From contig OY970368.1 of assembly GCA_963718615.1 (NCBI GenBank), positions 5,504,001 to 5,568,000 of the forward strand: a stretch of 64,000 nt of DNA. The letters run 5' to 3'. Each line of letters starts with the position of its first letter. The first letter of the stretch is position 1. Source of the DNA: an uncultured cyanobacterium (GTDB lineage: Bacteria; Cyanobacteriota; Cyanobacteriia; PCC-9006; JAAUQQ01). Both the position numbers and the translations under genes were made by a program. Shown in pieces: positions 17,330 through 32,639 of this stretch. Under the pieces are notes generated by a model that ran no database searches, was not told the DNA's origin, and saw only the letters and a program-made list of their open reading frames with translations.

Positions 17330-18088
17330 TCATCCGTGGCGAATAAATGCAGGGCCATAGGCTGCCGTTAGGGTATCTGGGTGTAGAACTTCCTCCGGGG
17401 AACCTTGATGAATCAACTGACGATTGAGACAAAGAACACAATCACAGTGGGTTCTGACCATATTTAAGTCATGGGAAATTTGTAAAATCGACCAGCCCTG
17501 TTCTCGTTTGAGTTGACTCAGTAAGGCATAAAACTCTGCTTCCCCTCGTACATCTAAGCCTGCGGGTGCTTCGTCCAGAATCAACAACTGTCGAGGACGA
17601 ATCAAGCAGTAGGCCAGTAATACTCGTTTGATTTCACCTCCTGATAAACTGCTGATAGCTTGGCGATGCAGATGGCTGGCTTCTACCTGGGCTAGCGCAA
17701 GCTGAACCGCATGGGATCGCTCTCGCCATCCCACCCAAGGAAGTTGCCAGCCTAATCGATCCCAGCCCAATCCCACCAGCTCCGCAACGGTCATGGGAAT
17801 CCGTTGATCAATCAAGAAGTTTTGTGGTAGGTAAGCAACATGATGGCGGAGCAAGGTTTCGGTCTTAGGACCCAGGCGTTGCCCCAGCAATGTAACCTGT
17901 CCAGCCTGATAGGGTAATAGCCCTAAAATAGCTTGAATCAGCGTACTTTTGCCTGCACCATTGGGGCCAATAATGGCCATGTCCATACCCGCAGGCAGCG
18001 AAAAAGAAATATCTTGGATAGCGGCTGTCTTTCCTCGATGGACGGTTAGACGTTCTACGGTCAGAATGGGAGGCATTGATGACATCAT
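17330..18088 (-). CDS. znuC: Zn/Mn ABC transporter ATP-binding subunit
   Basis: GPNGAGKST, YLPQ, LSGGE, LILDE, SHDL; follows the substrate-binding gene. Confidence 0.88.
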   Translation of the reverse strand: MMSSMPPILTVERLTVHRGKTAAIQDISFSLPAGMDMAIIGPNGAGKSTLIQAILGLLPYQAGQVTLLGQRLGPKTETLLRHHVAYLPQNFLIDQRIPMTVAELVGLGWDRLGWQLPWVGWRERSHAVQLALAQVEASHLHRQAISSLSGGEIKRVLLAYCLIRPRQLLILDEAPAGLDVRGEAEFYALLSQLKREQGWSILQISHDLNMVRTHCDCVLCLNRQLIHQGSPEEVLHPDTLTAAYGPAFIRHG

Positions 18089-18101
18089 AGGGGGGTTGGC
18101 A

Positions 18102-19148
18102 TCATGAGCCCGCAAAGGCTTGTTGCAGTTGAATAACATTCTCCCGCATGACGGTAAAGTAGGCATCGGGCCTAATACTATCCATCTCTCCCACTTCATT
18201 GGGCTGAAATGTACTGATGTTTACATTCAAATCTTGAGCTAAGGCCTGGAAGGGACCCGCTGTTGCTTGAGATTCAGTTAAGAGGGTTTTGAGCTCAGAT
18301 TTTTTTACGGCTTCCATGACTCGTTTGACATCATTAGGGGCAGGATTCTCTTCGGGAATTCCCACTAAAAATTCGACTTTTAAGCCATAGCGATCGGCAA
18401 AGTAATTGGCAAAGTCGTGATAGGTGACAAAGGTTTTACCTGCAAAGGGAGACAGGGTCTTCTGAATCTCCTGGTGAAGTGCTTCTAACTGTGCGTTATA
18501 GGTAGCAGCATTGGCCGTAAATTGTGCTTCACAAGTGGGCTGAGCTACGATCAAGCCATCGCGAATATTGTTCACTTGATCCATCGCTCGCACCGGATCT
18601 AACCAAATATGGGGATCGAATTCACCATGATCATGGCTCTCTGTTTCTTCGCCGTGATGTTCTGACTCTGTACCGTGATGATCATGCTCGCTCTCTACCA
18701 TGGGAATCAGATCGAGTCCTTCGCTACTATCAATAATCTTCAAGTTTGGATTGCCCGTATTCTCGATCATAGAGTCTAGAAAATGTTCAATTTCTAGGCC
18801 GTTTTGTACCAAGACATCTGCCTGTGACAGGCTTTGAGCATCACTGGGTTTAGCCTGATAATCGTGGGGACCAACATTGGTCGGCAAGAGTTGAGTGACC
18901 TCAGCGCAGTCACCCGCTACCGCTTTAGTGAACTGGGTCATGGGCAAAAATGTCGTTACAACCTTCAGCTTCTGCTCGCTGCTAGGGGCCGCATTATTGG
19001 CTAAGTCTTGAGCAGAGGTTTTGCCTGCGTTTTGGCCTGCGTTCTGGGCTACCTCTGGATTGGATTGGCCGGAGCAAGCACCTAGCACTAGGGCGATCGC
19101 CAGACCTAAAAATCGAACGTGAATGGATTGACCTTTAGCTAAAACCAT
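18102..19148 (-). CDS. znuA: Zn ABC transporter substrate-binding lipoprotein
   Basis: LGAC lipobox, GPHDY, His-rich loop, DPHIWLDP, TYHD. Confidence 0.9.
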   Translation of the reverse strand: MVLAKGQSIHVRFLGLAIALVLGACSGQSNPEVAQNAGQNAGKTSAQDLANNAAPSSEQKLKVVTTFLPMTQFTKAVAGDCAEVTQLLPTNVGPHDYQAKPSDAQSLSQADVLVQNGLEIEHFLDSMIENTGNPNLKIIDSSEGLDLIPMVESEHDHHGTESEHHGEETESHDHGEFDPHIWLDPVRAMDQVNNIRDGLIVAQPTCEAQFTANAATYNAQLEALHQEIQKTLSPFAGKTFVTYHDFANYFADRYGLKVEFLVGIPEENPAPNDVKRVMEAVKKSELKTLLTESQATAGPFQALAQDLNVNISTFQPNEVGEMDSIRPDAYFTVMRENVIQLQQAFAGS

Positions 19149-19156
19149 GGCTAAAA

Positions 19157-20272
<1,116 letters not shown>

Positions 20273-20280
20273 TTATTATA

Positions 20281-20301
20281 TGATAATGAAAATCATTATC
20301 A
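20281..20301. promoter_or_regulatory. Zur/Fur-type operator between hemB and the Fur-family gene
   Basis: TGATAATGA-AAA-TCATTATCA palindrome. Confidence 0.9.
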
Positions 20302-20355
20302 CTCAATTCGTCAAGAGAAAATGCTTCGTTTAGAAATGTTATTGAGAGGAAATCT

Positions 20356-20766
20356 GTGGTGAACCGGAGGTTAACGAGTAGTCAGATGTTGGTATACGAG
20401 GTGTTACAAGACACGTCTCTGGAATTAAGTGCTCAGGCGATTCATGCCGCTTTAGTTCGTCGCGGGCATGCCCGTGGCTTGGCAACGGTTTATCGGGCAT
20501 TGCGAGGGTTGCAATTGCTGGGGTTGGTGCGATCGCATTCCTTGCTCGCAGGAGAACAGGGATTTAGCTTGTGTCACAAAAACTCCCCCTACCTCACCTG
20601 TTTGCAATGCGGACAATCGGTATCTTTAGCAATGAGTCCGATGGAAAACTTTGTCCGACATCTTGCTCAACAAGCGAACTTTCTAGTCTATTACCACACG
20701 CTAGAGCTTATTGGGATCTGTTTGCCTTGTCAAGACAATATTCAAGGGGAACATCATCAAACGTAG
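20356..20766 (+). CDS. Fur-family regulator, divergent Zur paralogue
   Basis: LSAQAIH, GLATVYRAL, LTCLQCG, YYHTLELIGICLPC. Confidence 0.9.
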   Translation: MVNRRLTSSQMLVYEVLQDTSLELSAQAIHAALVRRGHARGLATVYRALRGLQLLGLVRSHSLLAGEQGFSLCHKNSPYLTCLQCGQSVSLAMSPMENFVRHLAQQANFLVYYHTLELIGICLPCQDNIQGEHHQT

Positions 20767-20768
20767 CC

Positions 20769-21404
20769 TTAGAAGTGGCGTTGATTTTGAATCGCTTCAA
20801 GGTCGCAAGTCCCGGTCTCCGCACAGCGATACCCGGCTAAAAGTGCCTTGTTAATCTCGACCACATGGTGGGAAAACTTTTGGTCGTGGGGTTTCGCATT
20901 TGGAAGACGATCGGCCTGTTGCTGATGCACAATGATTGATCCGGATGGAACATACTTTCCAGGCAGAATTTCTACATCCTGGATGAGTGCATGCATCATG
21001 ACGATGCAACCTTGACCGACCTTGGCATTAAAGACTGTGGAACGAAAGCCGATAAAACAATTATCGCCTACGTAGGCTGGTCCGTGAATTAGAGCCATGT
21101 GAGTAATACAGGTATTTCGACCAATCCAGACTGAATACAATTGTTGATCATCTCCAGTGACACGACCTTCCTCGAGGCCATGAATGACGACGCCATCTTG
21201 AATATTGCTGCGATCGCCAATGTGAAAGGGGGTCCCTTCATCCGCTCGAATCGAGCAATGGGGAGCAATCAGTACGCCTTCGCCAATGTGAATATCACCA
21301 ATGAGACTAGAGGCCGGATGAACATAGGCGGATGGGTGAGCTTGGGGACGATCTGTACTTTGGTCCCAGGGGGTTGGTGGTGCAGGTTGATAACGGAGTG
21401 GCAT
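20769..21404 (-). CDS. Stand-alone gamma-carbonic anhydrase domain closely resembling the CcmM N-terminus
   Basis: [65 protein letters not shown]; 211 aa, no RbcS-like repeats. Confidence 0.9.
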
Positions 21405-21477
21405 AGAAATGAAGCTTGCAGATGGATGGTATTTAAGGCACTGAAAACCAAACGTTGAGTTGAATGACCGGGAACCC

Positions 21478-21954
21478 TTAAAGTTGAGTTGGATTAGGTG
21501 CATCGCCATACACCTGTTGCGGATCGAAGGTTTTTTCTAACTCAGTAAAGTGCAGTGTGATCGACTGGGCTACTGCGTCCCCCAGCGGAATTTCACGATA
21601 GAAACAAGAATGATATCCCACATGACAGCTTGCCCCAGTTCCAGCCACATCGACTTTCATCCAGAGGCAATCTTGATCATCGTCAATCAGCAGTTGTCGA
21701 ACATGCTGAATCAGCCCACTGGTCGCCCCCTTATGCCAAAGAACCTGACGACTGCGGCTGTAGTAATGGGCTTCGCGGGTGACGATTGTGCGCCGTAGTG
21801 CTTCGGCATTCATGTATCCCTGCATGAGCACTTCGCCGCTGGAGGCGTTGGTGGTGATCACGGGGATTAATCCTTGGGCATCGAACCTTGGGGCAAGGCT
21901 GGTGCTTTCTTCAACTTGCTGAACGGACTGCCGCTGCGAAAAGGGGAAACTCAT
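21478..21954 (-). CDS. hisI: Phosphoribosyl-AMP cyclohydrolase (monofunctional paralogue)
   Basis: [44 protein letters not shown]. Confidence 0.92.
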
Positions 21955-21989
21955 GGCCAGAAAACGACATAGAATAATGATGGATAGTT

Positions 21990-22004
21990 TGATAATGATT
22001 ATCA
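21990..22004. promoter_or_regulatory. Zur box upstream of hisI
   Basis: Perfect 7-1-7 TGATAAT-G-ATTATCA. Confidence 0.9.
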
Positions 22005-22077
22005 TTTCTATTGTAGGGTACCATGGCGCTCTAACGCCGAGTGGTGCTAAATTGACGCCTAAGCACACCGTTCTAGG

Positions 22078-26073: not shown

Positions 26074-26088
26074 TGATAATGATTATCA
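26074..26088. promoter_or_regulatory. Zur box upstream of thrS
   Basis: Perfect TGATAAT-G-ATTATCA. Confidence 0.9.
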
Positions 26089-27345: not shown

Positions 27346-28418
27346 AACATTCGCCAAATCAACCATTCCCCCGCCTGCCCTCCAGCCACCAAAAACTGCC
27401 CTGAAGGATGCCACGCGACGGTAGAAAATCCCTGCATCGTGGCCTCAATTATTTGGCTTAAAATATGGCCCTTGCGCCAAAGCCCCAGAGAGCCATCCGC
27501 CGAGGCCGTGGCGAGTAACAAACTTTGGGGATGAAAGGCGATCGCCTCCACCCGTTCTGTATGCAACTCCAGTAATCGTGCCTCCCAGCCAATCGCATCA
27601 TCCTCGGATTTTTGCCACAGGACAATATCTTGGCTACTGGCACTCGCCAATAATGGAGCCTGACCCGACAGCACTGGGCTCCAGACGAGCTGCCTCACCT
27701 TCCCCGGAAAGCCCCCCATGCGCCAAGGATTCTCACTGTTGCCCTGTTGCCAGACCCAGAGCGTCCGGTCGAGATTGCCTGAGGCTAAGTATTGACCTTC
27801 TGGTGAGCAGGCGATCGCCAGCCCCGCAGAGGGCATCTCTAAAATCTGCGGTTCCCGGTCCCAATCGCCAGCCTTCCAAATTTTGACGCCCTGCTGTCCA
27901 CTGACGGCGAGCCAGTGCCCCGCCGGGTGCCATTGCAGATCTAATACTGACGACTGCTCAAAATCCACCGTCATCACGACAGCCTGGTCGATCGCATCCC
28001 AAACCTGAACATAATGACCCAAACTGAACGCCAGCTCAGGCTTGCAAGGATTCCAGGCTAGGCGATCGACCCAGACCCGTGGATGTTCAAGTTGGGTGAG
28101 CAGCGTCGGCCCCTCTTTGGAATCAGCTTGGATTGGCATCGACCACAGATACAGACATCCCTCCTGACCCCCGGCTGCCAGAAATCGGCCATCGGCGGAA
28201 AATTCTAAGGTATCGATGGAAGATCCCTGCGGTTCCGTCAATGGATGCAGAGACAATTCTTCCCCTAGCCAATGGCCCCAAACCACCTCACCCGCCGCAG
28301 AAGCAAGGGCAATGACTTGGCCCGTGGGAGACCAGGCGATCGCCGTGATGTAGTCCTGTAAATGGCCCTGGCTATGGGGGGTTACCAGGGTTTGCAGGGG
28401 TGCTCTTACTGTATACAT
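27342..28418 (-). CDS. WD40 repeat protein
   Basis: Repeated WSP.G/FSADG/WHP.G..LA.G..D...W units; overlaps the COG0523 stop. Confidence 0.9.
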   Translation of the reverse strand: MYTVRAPLQTLVTPHSQGHLQDYITAIAWSPTGQVIALASAAGEVVWGHWLGEELSLHPLTEPQGSSIDTLEFSADGRFLAAGGQEGCLYLWSMPIQADSKEGPTLLTQLEHPRVWVDRLAWNPCKPELAFSLGHYVQVWDAIDQAVVMTVDFEQSSVLDLQWHPAGHWLAVSGQQGVKIWKAGDWDREPQILEMPSAGLAIACSPEGQYLASGNLDRTLWVWQQGNSENPWRMGGFPGKVRQLVWSPVLSGQAPLLASASSQDIVLWQKSEDDAIGWEARLLELHTERVEAIAFHPQSLLLATASADGSLGLWRKGHILSQIIEATMQGFSTVAWHPSGQFLVAGGQAGEWLIWRMF

Positions 28419-29380
28419 GCGCAGAAGTCCCGCCGAAGTTGTTCTCCATCTAAGTCACGACCGATAAACACCAATTCATTCTTGCGCGTTTCGTTAGACT
28501 TCCAGGGGCGATCGGGTTGTCCATCGAAGAGCATATGTACCCCTTGAAACACAAAGCGTTGATCCTCTCCGGCAATATTCAAAATGCCCTTCATCCGAAA
28601 GATGTTTGTGCCTTGGGTTTGTAGCAAATGGCTCAGCCAATCATTCAACTTCACGCCATCCAATTCTCCTGCTTCCACGATAGCTACAGACCCCACCGAA
28701 TCATCATGCTCATGGGCATGTTCTTCCTCTAAAAACTCAGGCTCAATTTCCAAGGCTCGGTTGAGATCAAAGGCTTTGACTCCTAAGATTGCATCCATTT
28801 CAACCGCAGCATCCTGGGTCCGATAAATCTTGGCCATGGCATTCATGGCACGAATTCGCTGCTCTAGGGCAATTAAATCTGCCTCTTCCACGAGATCCGT
28901 TTTATTCAGCAAGATTACATCGGCAAAGGCTAATTGTTCCTGGGCTTCATCGGCTTCCCAATGCTGATGGATATGTTTGGCATCTACTACGGTGACCACA
29001 GCATCCAAGGCGAGTTGGCCTCGCATATCCTCATCAACAAAGAAGGTCTGAATGACAGGAGCTGGGTCTGCCAAGCCGGTCGTCTCAATGACCAGATGAT
29101 CAAACTTGTTTCGACGCTTCATTAAGTTGCCAATAATGCGAATCAAATCCCCTCGCACCGTACAGCAAATACAGCCATTGTTCATTTCAAAGATTTCTTC
29201 ATCGGCATCAATGACCAACTGGTTATCAATGCCGACCTCGCCAAACTCATTGACGATCACCGCAATCTTTTGACCATGCTCATGGGTGAGAATGCGGTTG
29301 AGCAGCGTTGTCTTGCCTGCTCCCAGATAGCCCGTGAGAACCGTGACGGGCACAACGCTTTCTTCGTATGCAATGCTCAT
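28406..29380 (-). CDS. COG0523/CobW family G3E GTPase
   Basis: TGYLGAGKTT, NEFGE, GCICCT, ETTGLADP, NKTD, CobW_C (RMKG, FQGVH, LVFIG). Confidence 0.95.
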   Translation of the reverse strand: MSIAYEESVVPVTVLTGYLGAGKTTLLNRILTHEHGQKIAVIVNEFGEVGIDNQLVIDADEEIFEMNNGCICCTVRGDLIRIIGNLMKRRNKFDHLVIETTGLADPAPVIQTFFVDEDMRGQLALDAVVTVVDAKHIHQHWEADEAQEQLAFADVILLNKTDLVEEADLIALEQRIRAMNAMAKIYRTQDAAVEMDAILGVKAFDLNRALEIEPEFLEEEHAHEHDDSVGSVAIVEAGELDGVKLNDWLSHLLQTQGTNIFRMKGILNIAGEDQRFVFQGVHMLFDGQPDRPWKSNETRKNELVFIGRDLDGEQLRRDFCACIQ

Positions 29381-29393
29381 AGCCGCCCTGGAT

Positions 29394-29408
29394 TGAAAAT
29401 GATTATCG
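29394..29408. promoter_or_regulatory. Zur box upstream of COG0523-WD40
   Basis: TGAAAAT-G-ATTATCG (2 mismatches to the 7-1-7 palindrome). Confidence 0.75.
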
Positions 29409-29494
29409 ATATCAAATAATATAGAGCAGGTTAGGGCTGAGGGCTACAAAGAATCATTACGGGGAATCATGGCAGACCCCTAGAGAGAATGGGT

Positions 29495-30559
<1,065 letters not shown>

Positions 30560-30589
30560 AGAGATCCAGAAATGAAAAGGAGAGAAGAA

Positions 30590-31597
30590 TTAGAAATGGC
30601 TAATACAGTTGTTGAGTCGTTGCTGAAGCTCCAATCTATTCAACTGTTTGCCAATAAAAACAAGTTGATTGATAGGTTCACGTTTGAGAGAAATCACATC
30701 GAGGCTAAATCGTTTTCCACTGAGCTGAAAAACGTAGTGGGGCTCTTGCCCTGCAAACCACAGAATTCCCTTAGCTCGATAAACAGTTTCTGGTAGATAA
30801 TCCGTCAGAAACAACTGAAACCGCTGTACGTCCAAGGGATACTGACTCGTGAAGGAGAACGACACAAAGCCGTCTTGATTCAAATGATTGGCGGAAGCCA
30901 AAGCGGGCGAAGGCGAACCCGTGGAGAGATCTTGCGGATCAAGGAGCTCCACCTCAGATCCTCCTAACCCTAGAATGACCGGCAATGGAACCTTTCCCCG
31001 TTCACAGCGAATAATCCTTGCCCCTTCTCGATAGTTATGGCATTGTTGCTCAATGCCTTCTAGCCTTTGTGTATCAACTAAGTCAACCTTGTTGAGCAAT
31101 AAAATATCGCCGTAGGTCAACTGACTCAGGGCAGCTTGACTGTTAAACAGATCAAGGGAGAAGTTTTCTGCATCAATGACCGTCAGAATACTATCAAGAT
31201 GCGTCAAGTCCCTCAGCTCCGATGATAGGAGGGTCAAGGCAATGGGAAGAGGATCCGCAAGACCCGTGGTTTCGATGACCATGTAGTCTACGCGATCGCT
31301 CCGCTCCATTACACTATAGATGGTGTCAACTAAGCTATCATTAATTGTGCAACAAATGCACCCATTGCTCAACTCCATCATATCTTCTTCTAAGGCAACC
31401 AAGAGTTGAGAGTCAATATTAATATCGCCAAATTCATTCACAAGAACGGCTACTTTTAGCGCTTGTCGATTATTCAAAATATGATTGACTAGGGTCGTTT
31501 TTCCACTGCCGAGAAACCCTGTAATAATCGTGATGGGAAGGCCGCATTTGGCTAGATTTAGTTCTAAATCTTGAGCGGCTTTAGTGGCTTGGAACAT
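30590..31597 (-). CDS. COG0523/CobW GTPase without His-rich insert
   Basis: TGFLGSGKTT, GCICCT, ETTGLADP, YRAKGILW. Confidence 0.95.
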   Translation of the reverse strand: MFQATKAAQDLELNLAKCGLPITIITGFLGSGKTTLVNHILNNRQALKVAVLVNEFGDINIDSQLLVALEEDMMELSNGCICCTINDSLVDTIYSVMERSDRVDYMVIETTGLADPLPIALTLLSSELRDLTHLDSILTVIDAENFSLDLFNSQAALSQLTYGDILLLNKVDLVDTQRLEGIEQQCHNYREGARIIRCERGKVPLPVILGLGGSEVELLDPQDLSTGSPSPALASANHLNQDGFVSFSFTSQYPLDVQRFQLFLTDYLPETVYRAKGILWFAGQEPHYVFQLSGKRFSLDVISLKREPINQLVFIGKQLNRLELQQRLNNCISHF

Positions 31598-32512: not shown

Positions 32513-32533
32513 TGATAATGAAAATCATTATCA
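32513..32533. promoter_or_regulatory. Zur/Fur-type operator upstream of znuB
   Basis: TGATAATGAAAATCATTATCA, identical to 20281-20301. Confidence 0.9.
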
Positions 32534-32639
32534 CTCATTTGTCAATGGAAATCACCTTAATTTCGCAATGGTATCGGGCAGGATGGCCTGTCGGCCTTCT
32601 CCTATAATGGAGATTAAGCTTTGTATCACGATCCTGGCT

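Follow-up and report, generated by a model that had tools for sequence, protein, structure and literature searches.

The window analysed here is a stretch of 64,000 nucleotides from an uncultured cyanobacterium (contig OY970368.1, positions 5,504,001 to 5,568,000), and positions below are those of the window unless a genome locus is given. At 20356..20766 on the plus strand it carries a gene for a Fur-family protein, P0001, that falls into the Zur clade and has lost three of the four ligands of the sensory zinc site of cyanobacterial Zur, with the structural zinc site retained. The gene starts 54 nt from the end of a palindromic Zur operator within an island of zinc-starvation genes, and a canonical zur with all four sensory ligands is present elsewhere in the genome, at G000:C1:1755001. 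We suggest, tentatively, that this paralogue binds Zur boxes independently of the zinc site and exerts negative feedback on the island and on its own gene during zinc starvation.

The coding sequence is that of the open reading frame list and gives a protein of 136 aa with a GTG start, preceded at a distance of 6-12 nt by a Shine-Dalgarno-like GAGAGGA. The initial annotation had the distance of 54 nt between gene and operator right, but its start coordinate, 20281, marks where the operator begins and lies upstream of the gene; an ATG at 20280 belongs to another frame, which meets a stop at 20333. Pfam FUR (PF01475) matches residues 5-118 of the 136 at 54.1 bits against a cut-off of 23.1 (E 2.2e-14), and the closest solved structures by HMMER are Zur proteins, with 7NE9, the Zur of Synechococcus WH8102 (SynZur), at the top (E 3.8e-15). 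An AlphaFold2 model (pLDDT 80.9) predicts the winged-helix DNA-binding domain and the alpha/beta dimerisation domain of the Fur fold, and the top Foldseek matches of this model are all Fur-family chains, the best again being 7NE9 (TM 0.63/0.70, rmsd 3.6 A). Neither the paralogue nor the genome's other Fur-family genes reach the cut-off of any NCBIfam equivalog. In our tree the Zur-like proteins, including the paralogue, are split from the genome's FurA and PerR at 98/90.

The genome is 6.10 Mb in one contig and has five Fur-family genes, these being a FurA-like gene, a PerR-like gene, one for a cysteine-less form of 189 aa, the paralogue and the canonical zur. The product of the last reads D-R-H-H...H-C-P...YYHTLE and is 41% identical to the paralogue. 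The presence of a canonical zur, on which the interpretation in the initial annotation turned, is thus confirmed, and the possibility that the paralogue is the sole zur is rejected.

Loss of the sensory site

In SynZur the structural zinc is bound by Cys83, Cys86, Cys123 and Cys126 and the sensory zinc by Asp77, His79, Cys95 and His115, and Arg78 has been put forward as the residue that passes the state of zinc occupancy on to the DNA-binding domain (PMC9337993). The ligand list was taken from that paper and residues were mapped by HMMER alignment of P0001 to 7NE9. Three of the four sensory ligands are replaced in P0001 (Asp77 by Asn76, His79 by Pro78 and Cys95 by Ser94), His115 is retained as His114, and the relay residue Arg78 has become Ser77. 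All four structural cysteines are retained, as Cys82, Cys85, Cys122 and Cys125, and they are invariant in the paralogue group, which consists of P0001 and the three relatives discussed below. The recognition helix GLATVYRAL, the pairs CLQC and CLPC, and YHTLE are all present in the translation, and the protein reads K-N-S-P-Y before LTCL and A-M-S-P after the first CxxC; the corresponding residues in the canonical Zur of this genome are D-R-H-H and H-C-P. The initial annotation had reported these motifs and the substitutions N-S-P-Y and M-S-P, had assigned the protein to the Zur clade and had taken the known cyanobacterial sensory site to be gone, and on all of these points it is borne out.

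The codons for Cys73 to Thr81 are at 20572..20598 (plus strand) and cover the hinge and first strand of the dimer domain, which holds D77, R78 and H79 in SynZur and by alignment reads C-H-K-N-S-P-Y-L-T here. Ser94, in the place of the SynZur ligand Cys95, is encoded at 20635..20637, and His114, the sole sensory ligand retained, at 20695..20697, both again on the plus strand. The losses are common to all four members of the group, which have Asn or Ala at the position of Asp77, Pro at that of His79, Ser or Asn at that of Cys95, and Ser or Thr at that of Arg78. By alignment the inter-domain salt-bridge relay (Asp24/Glu25, Arg62, Arg78) is not retained either, with Leu22 and Glu23 at the positions of Asp24 and Glu25, and with His, Tyr, Arg and Arg at that of Arg62 in the four members. 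As three ligands and the arginine relay are lost, zinc cannot gate DNA binding in the way described for SynZur.

Five hydrophobic or rigidifying changes (L14Y, L69G, Y70F, H78P and L99F) are common to all members of the group and almost never seen in 67 canonical Zurs, and the net charge of the helix 3-4 region is +3 to +4 in the paralogues versus a mean of +1.4 in the canonical Zurs. These features would be compatible with a lock that works free of metal and with retained affinity for DNA.

Cys73 is new and is invariant in all four paralogues, and none of 80 metagenomic Zur genes has Cys at this position. HMMER alignments place it precisely opposite Cys79 of S. coelicolor Zur and Cys76 of M. 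tuberculosis Zur, which we take to be ligands of an inter-domain regulatory site. In addition, every member has His or Glu as residue 74, Glu or Asp as residue 97 and the invariant His114, and Cys73 and Pro78 are the sole invariant positions of what is otherwise the least conserved strand. Given the new Cys73, it is as possible that the protein is re-wired as that it is zinc-blind: the site may have moved or changed its chemistry through Cys73, His/Glu74, His114 and perhaps the acidic residue 97, and would then sense zinc at another affinity, giving a second threshold within a graded response to starvation, or another metal, or thiol oxidation. However the canonical inter-domain site 2, which in S. 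coelicolor Zur is presumably D65, C79, H85 and H87, is not found in P0001, where the Cys position alone is filled (C73) and the others are R59, a gap and Y79. These other positions are not ligand-like or not conserved (across the four members residue 59 is R, R, Y and Y and residue 79 is Y, Y, H and H), and three candidate ligands scattered over the hinge do not demonstrate a site. We regard a re-wired sensor as unlikely, but as the main rival explanation. The earlier claim of metal insensitivity thus stands as regards loss of the known sensory site and not as regards insensitivity itself, as the invariant Cys73 may mean that the site has been relocated.

Operator, promoters and the zinc-starvation island

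The operator TGATAATGAAAATCATTATCA at 20281..20301 is a perfect 21-bp palindrome of 9-3-9 form, which may be read as two overlapping 7-1-7 Zur boxes. It lies in the intergenic region of 104 bp between the paralogue and the divergent hemB2 (19157..20251, minus strand), and an identical 21-bp copy was found by pattern scan at 32513..32533, before znuB (ABC-3). The segments 20281-20315 and 32513-32547 also have similar right flanks, for about 14 bases beyond the operator (CTCAATTCGTCAAG and CTCATTTGTCAATG), and the two operators are at similar distances, about 30 and 27 nt, from minus-strand start codons; the two segments look like a duplicated promoter-operator module. Perfect 7-1-7 Zur boxes are present at 21990..22004 (TGATAATGATTATCA), between hisI2 and the gene for a gamma-carbonic-anhydrase-like protein on the minus strand and an M23 peptidase gene on the plus strand, and at 26074..26088, 5' of thrS2. 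Allowing up to 3 mismatches, a scan for the 21-mer pattern gave 7 sites in the window, versus 0.02 expected from 100 shuffles. For the genome as a whole, 7 of the 10 such sites are in the window (reversed-pattern control, 1), as are all 5 of the 7-1-7 sites within 1 mismatch of TGATAATNATTATCA (control, 2). All strong Zur boxes of the genome are gathered in a single island at 12861-46749, and the genome-wide pattern scan found no strong Zur box elsewhere, including before the canonical zur.

With regard to the protein that the operator serves, its 19-mer core is present before the orthologue of the paralogue gene in G003, a genome of the same family but another genus, and, with up to 1 mismatch, before znuA in G001 and G004 and before znuC in G007. 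The paralogue was not found in these last three genomes, which are 93%, 87% and 62% complete. The occurrence of the 19-mer at znu genes where no paralogue was found indicates that it is the ordinary Zur operator of the family, and that canonical Zur can serve the box. The palindrome to which the initial annotation pointed is thus a genuine, canonical Zur operator, and the idea that the paralogue is needed as a dedicated regulator of the box is rejected for genomes at that level of completeness. The arrangement of hemB2, paralogue and operator is kept between the two genera: in G003 the orthologue is divergent from hemB2, which is followed on its own strand by znuA, znuB, a hydrolase gene and three COG0523 genes.

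The presence of the operator in so short a divergent region makes it likely that the paralogue is under Zur control, as any promoter for it within the 104 bp must overlap or abut the box. There is a difficulty in that the sole consensus-like promoter overlapping the box, a sigma-70-like GTGATA-16-TATAAT (10/12) at 20275..20302 on the minus strand, reads towards hemB2, although with 1 site versus 0.8 in shuffles this is not significant alone. By our own reading there are also -35-like hexamers (TTGACG, TTGACA and GCGACA) on the minus strand in the flanks, which resemble one another, of the three boxes aligned. The operator might then serve the hemB2-znuA operon only, with the paralogue transcribed independently of zinc and having a regulon of its own, possibly linked to hemB2 and tetrapyrrole synthesis. 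The distribution among relatives fits such a link, as among them the paralogue was found only in G003, in which hemB2 is at 80% identity and its upstream region is assembled. In G001, G002 and G006, where the ALAD copies are all of 61-63% identity, it was not found. However this co-occurrence comes from a few related and incomplete genomes (62-93%), and in G004, where hemB2 is also at 80% identity, the contig ends inside the 5' end of hemB2. Moreover Zur bound 54 nt from the start of the paralogue would hardly be without effect on the opposite promoter, and the association of box and gene is conserved in G003. An operator for hemB2 and znuA alone seems to us improbable, and we return to the paralogue as a gene that is likely to be under Zur control.

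Other genes of the island are in keeping with zinc starvation. The product of hemB2 (Pfam ALAD) is a porphobilinogen synthase with the motif DVALDPY..GHDG, which we take to mark the zinc-independent type, and the housekeeping ALAD copy at G000:C1:247068 has DTCLCEY..GHCG, presumably the zinc type. Downstream of hemB2 are znuA, with a His-rich loop (18102..19166, minus strand; Pfam ZnuA, E 1.4e-72), and a gene for a znuC-like ABC ATPase (17330..18199, minus strand; Pfam ABC_tran). The genes from about 17 to 33 kb are znuC, znuA, hemB2, the paralogue, that for the gamma-carbonic-anhydrase-like protein, hisI2 and those for the M23 peptidase and a Crp-type regulator, followed by thrS2, genes for an Fe/Mn superoxide dismutase, a WD40 protein and three COG0523 proteins, and znuB; the set matches the Zur regulon of Anabaena (PMC6103462). 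GC content shows no anomaly over the island.

Three further observations concern neighbouring genes. The three COG0523 (CobW-type) genes form a minus-strand tandem at 28406-31597, in which a degenerate Zur box at 29394 separates the first gene from the second, and the trio is also present in G003. The listed frame of hisI2 (21478-22068) begins upstream of the Zur box at 21990, but the gene probably starts at an internal ATG (MSFPFSQ...); the box would then fall in the divergent region that hisI2 has in common with the M23 peptidase gene. Lastly, 2 nt (within 20764-20771) separate the stop of the paralogue from that of the gamma-carbonic-anhydrase-like gene, which converges on it (20769-21509, minus strand), and as no terminator-like site was found between these two genes their transcripts would overlap.

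Constraint, distribution and the proposed circuit

The reading frame of the paralogue is intact in four lineages at 54-67% identity, with members differing at up to 46% of positions. Across the four, 58 of 121 compared positions are invariant, including all structural cysteines, and the proportion varies greatly by segment, at 14/21 for the recognition helix, 13/18 for the dimer and structural strand from beta5 to CxxC, and 2/9 for the former sensor strand. In comparison with G003 the paralogue has a dN of 0.35-0.40, as against 0.16-0.17 in canonical Zur and 0.14 in hemB2. The dN/dS ratio, for which the initial annotation had looked to orthologues, could not be had because synonymous sites are saturated at each of the three loci (maximum likelihood puts dS at 21.5 for the paralogue, and NG86 and YN00 yield no value for it), and dN together with the pattern of conservation was used in its place. 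For this genome pair the paralogue's dN is about 2.3-fold that of canonical Zur, which means that constraint has been relaxed or the function has shifted; constraint on the paralogue would appear to be relaxed relative to Zur and still clearly present.

The higher dN is what one would expect of a functionless duplicate in decay, as are the long stem branch (1.23) and the patchy occurrence, in 2 of 401 genomes. However the frame has stayed open in four lineages, the invariant positions include the structural cysteines and much of the recognition helix, synteny and operator are kept between two genera, and a dN of 0.35-0.40 is far below the saturated dS. We therefore give decay very little credence, and in this agree with the initial annotation, given intact frames in which the recognition helix and the dimer strand are the best conserved parts.

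That the recognition helix is conserved speaks for continued selection on DNA binding, and favours a DNA-binding role over that of a pure decoy. This bears on the anti-Zur role raised in the initial annotation. In such a role a poor DNA binder would, once induced, titrate canonical Zur into defective heterodimers and lock the regulon on, with positive feedback and hysteresis. The C95A mutant of SynZur gives it some plausibility, as this protein retains one zinc and the dimer state while its binding to the Zur box is abolished in an electrophoretic mobility shift assay (PMC9337993). The dimer strand FLVYYHTLE-G-C of the paralogue is also nearly identical to that of canonical Zur, although the paralogue departs from canonical Zur in helix 5 of its dimer domain. 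When canonical Zur and the paralogue were modelled as a complex, the score was 0.51 versus 0.01 for the best of 3 controls, with at least 88% of contacts agreeing between runs and a partner pLDDT of at least 75, which hints weakly at a heterodimer. Of 80 solved complexes 58 reach the mark that was passed, as do 2 of 110 mismatched pairs, but scores of 0.60 or below include only 7 of those 80 solved complexes and both of the passing mismatches. As Fur-family dimers have been solved, the pass may also reflect likeness to them, and a preference for heterodimer over homodimer cannot be read from it. A decoy needs no DNA-reading head, yet it is the head that has been kept, so that of the anti-Zur proposal the heterodimer may have something in it and the purely DNA-dead form fits poorly; taken as a whole we find it distinctly unlikely.

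In the tree the four paralogues form a clade of their own (support 99/100, stem 1.23) inside the Zur-like proteins. Canonical Zurs from this taxonomic family group tightly in another clade (100/95), and the free tree leaves the paralogues outside it. A grouping of the two is not rejected by the approximately unbiased test (p 0.189), so that a recent accelerated duplication and an older paralogue are both possible.

The group is rare. A word-indexed search of 5.8 billion proteins gave only three relatives at over 50% identity, P0002 at 67% and P0003 and P0004 at 56%, and the remaining matches, at 48% or less, are ordinary Zur. When a profile of the four was run against 1.84 billion cluster representatives, P0001 scored 254.5 bits and the next protein 131.2 bits, a gap which indicates that the group is a single cluster at 50%. 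The sensory pattern N/A-P-S/N-H is found in these four alone among 202 aligned Fur-family proteins, of which 67 have D-H-C-H and 39 H-H-C-H, and all 80 cyanobacterial Zur genes on metagenome contigs have D-H-C-H. Among 401 genomes of the class, only this one and G003 have a match at E <=1e-32. Degenerate sites also occur in the unrelated singletons P0055 (A-H-Y-H) and P0064 (H-P-L-H), and loss of the sensory site in Zur-like proteins may have occurred more than once. P0055 groups weakly with the paralogues; a metagenome scan around it gave ordinary Zur genes only (48-55% identity), which were used as the control set.

Other Zur-like and Fur-family genes were seen in passing. Second or third Zur-like copies are present in some other cyanobacteria and retain D, H and C, with three Zur-like genes in G017. 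There is also a second Zur-like clade, of the HRVTL-G-TLYS type, in L015, L019 and L023 (G035, G017 and G002), and again Asp, His and Cys are kept. The fifth Fur-family gene of the present genome (G000:C1:3309394-3309738; L004 1390-1959) is the 189-aa form, which lacks CxxC pairs, is extended by about 40 residues at its N-terminus, ends in an acidic tail rich in Pro and Glu, and scores 76 bits against Pfam FUR with no NCBIfam equivalog above cut-off.

In the feedback circuit that we tentatively prefer, zinc-loaded canonical Zur would sit on the box when zinc is sufficient and hold down both divergent promoters. As zinc runs out Zur would leave the box, and the paralogue would be produced along with the rest of the island. 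The paralogue dimer would then bind Zur-box DNA without zinc at the classical sensory site, and the outcome would be a ceiling on expression of the island, and of the paralogue's own gene, for as long as canonical Zur is inactive. The protein could also be seen as a starvation-induced modulator of Zur that is either an anti-Zur heterodimer poison, giving a bistable response, or a zinc-free stand-in on Zur boxes, and to this we assign a low probability. If true, it would be a case of a metalloregulator controlling a sensor-less copy of itself, a circuit for which we found no description for any Fur-family protein in the literature searched.

Several points weigh against the feedback circuit. 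SynZur C95A loses Zur-box binding in the account of PMC9337993, so that a paralogue without three of the ligands might not bind DNA at all unless the loss is compensated, and Cys73, His/Glu74, His114 and the acidic residue 97 could form a new metal or redox site. The sole consensus-like promoter is directed towards hemB2, a consensus scan of the intergenic region found no plus-strand promoter for the paralogue, and a box just upstream of a promoter further downstream could even activate. The raised dN relative to canonical Zur is a further point, as is the size of the group, with four members of which two are nearly identical. Finally, repression of zinc uptake genes in starvation is not obviously useful. 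The inference in the initial annotation that the gene is starvation-induced goes beyond these promoter findings, and its interpretation as a whole is partly supported; the observation from which it started is confirmed.

Comparison with known systems

Zur in cyanobacteria has been treated as a single sensor that sets zinc quotas, and the paralogue raises the possibility of a second regulatory layer in zinc-starvation responses, be it feedback, a second threshold or an anti-repressor. A natural copy of Zur from which the sensor has been removed, with DNA reading and dimerisation apparently still under selection, would also be a ready-made experiment on the coupling of sensory site and DNA binding. 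The case is narrow, being confined to one family of filamentous-type cyanobacteria, but an in vitro test is cheap. In the available portions of the literature searched, which included PMC9337993, PMC10957091, PMC3323870, PMC11672702 and PMC6103462, there is no description of a sensor-less Zur paralogue or of a Zur that controls its own copy, and the initial annotation, which knew of no such circuit, is in this respect upheld. His79 and Cys95 are said to be conserved in cyanobacterial Zurs "with a single exception" (PMC9337993), and this exception could conceivably be another such paralogue.

The closest known proteins are the cyanobacterial Zurs themselves, SynZur (7NE9) and FurB/Zur of Anabaena PCC 7120, which share with the paralogue the fold, the clade, GLATVYR, the Cys4 site, His115 and YYHTLE. 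They differ from it at Asp77 (Asn/Ala in the paralogues), His79 (Pro), Cys95 (Ser/Asn) and Arg78 (Ser/Thr), and in the new Cys73. There is also a difference in gene context, as among ordinary Zur genes of the metagenome set a Zur box is present within 250 nt upstream in 5 of the 76 with enough upstream sequence, whereas the paralogue gene is beside a box in a zinc island. Engineered SynZur C95A is similar in that the sensory Cys is gone and the structural zinc site kept (PMC9337993). However that protein is a laboratory point mutant that has lost DNA binding, while the paralogue is natural, has three ligands replaced and a recognition helix under constraint, and goes beyond C95A in the group-specific L14Y, L69G, Y70F, L99F and C73.

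Zur genes that are linked to znuABC and autoregulated are known in S. coelicolor, pseudomonads and Paracoccus denitrificans (PMC6103462), and the arrangement there is the same to the extent that a Zur-type gene is next to znu genes behind a Zur box. In those cases it is the only Zur of the cell and it senses zinc, whereas here the copy linked to the box is sensor-less and the canonical zur is separate.

Rhizobial Irr is a Fur-family protein that does not sense metal directly, acts under starvation and controls hemB. The paralogue resembles it as a Fur-family protein without the usual regulatory metal site, with hemB2 as its neighbour and presumably active in metal starvation. It is unlike Irr in keeping the Cys4 site and in belonging to the Zur clade and not the Irr clade, and the Irr models of NCBIfam gave no match to P0001 or P0003 at E <=0.001.

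Finally there are the zinc-independent enzymes of the regulon, of which hemB2, thrS2 and folE2 are paralogues of this type in the Zur regulon of Anabaena (PMC6103462, PMC3323870). The gene discussed here is likewise a second copy from which a zinc site has been removed, and it is in a Zur-controlled island beside hemB2, thrS2 and hisI2. The difference is that those enzymes replace zinc enzymes, whereas the paralogue is a copy of the regulator itself, and one in which the structural zinc has been kept.

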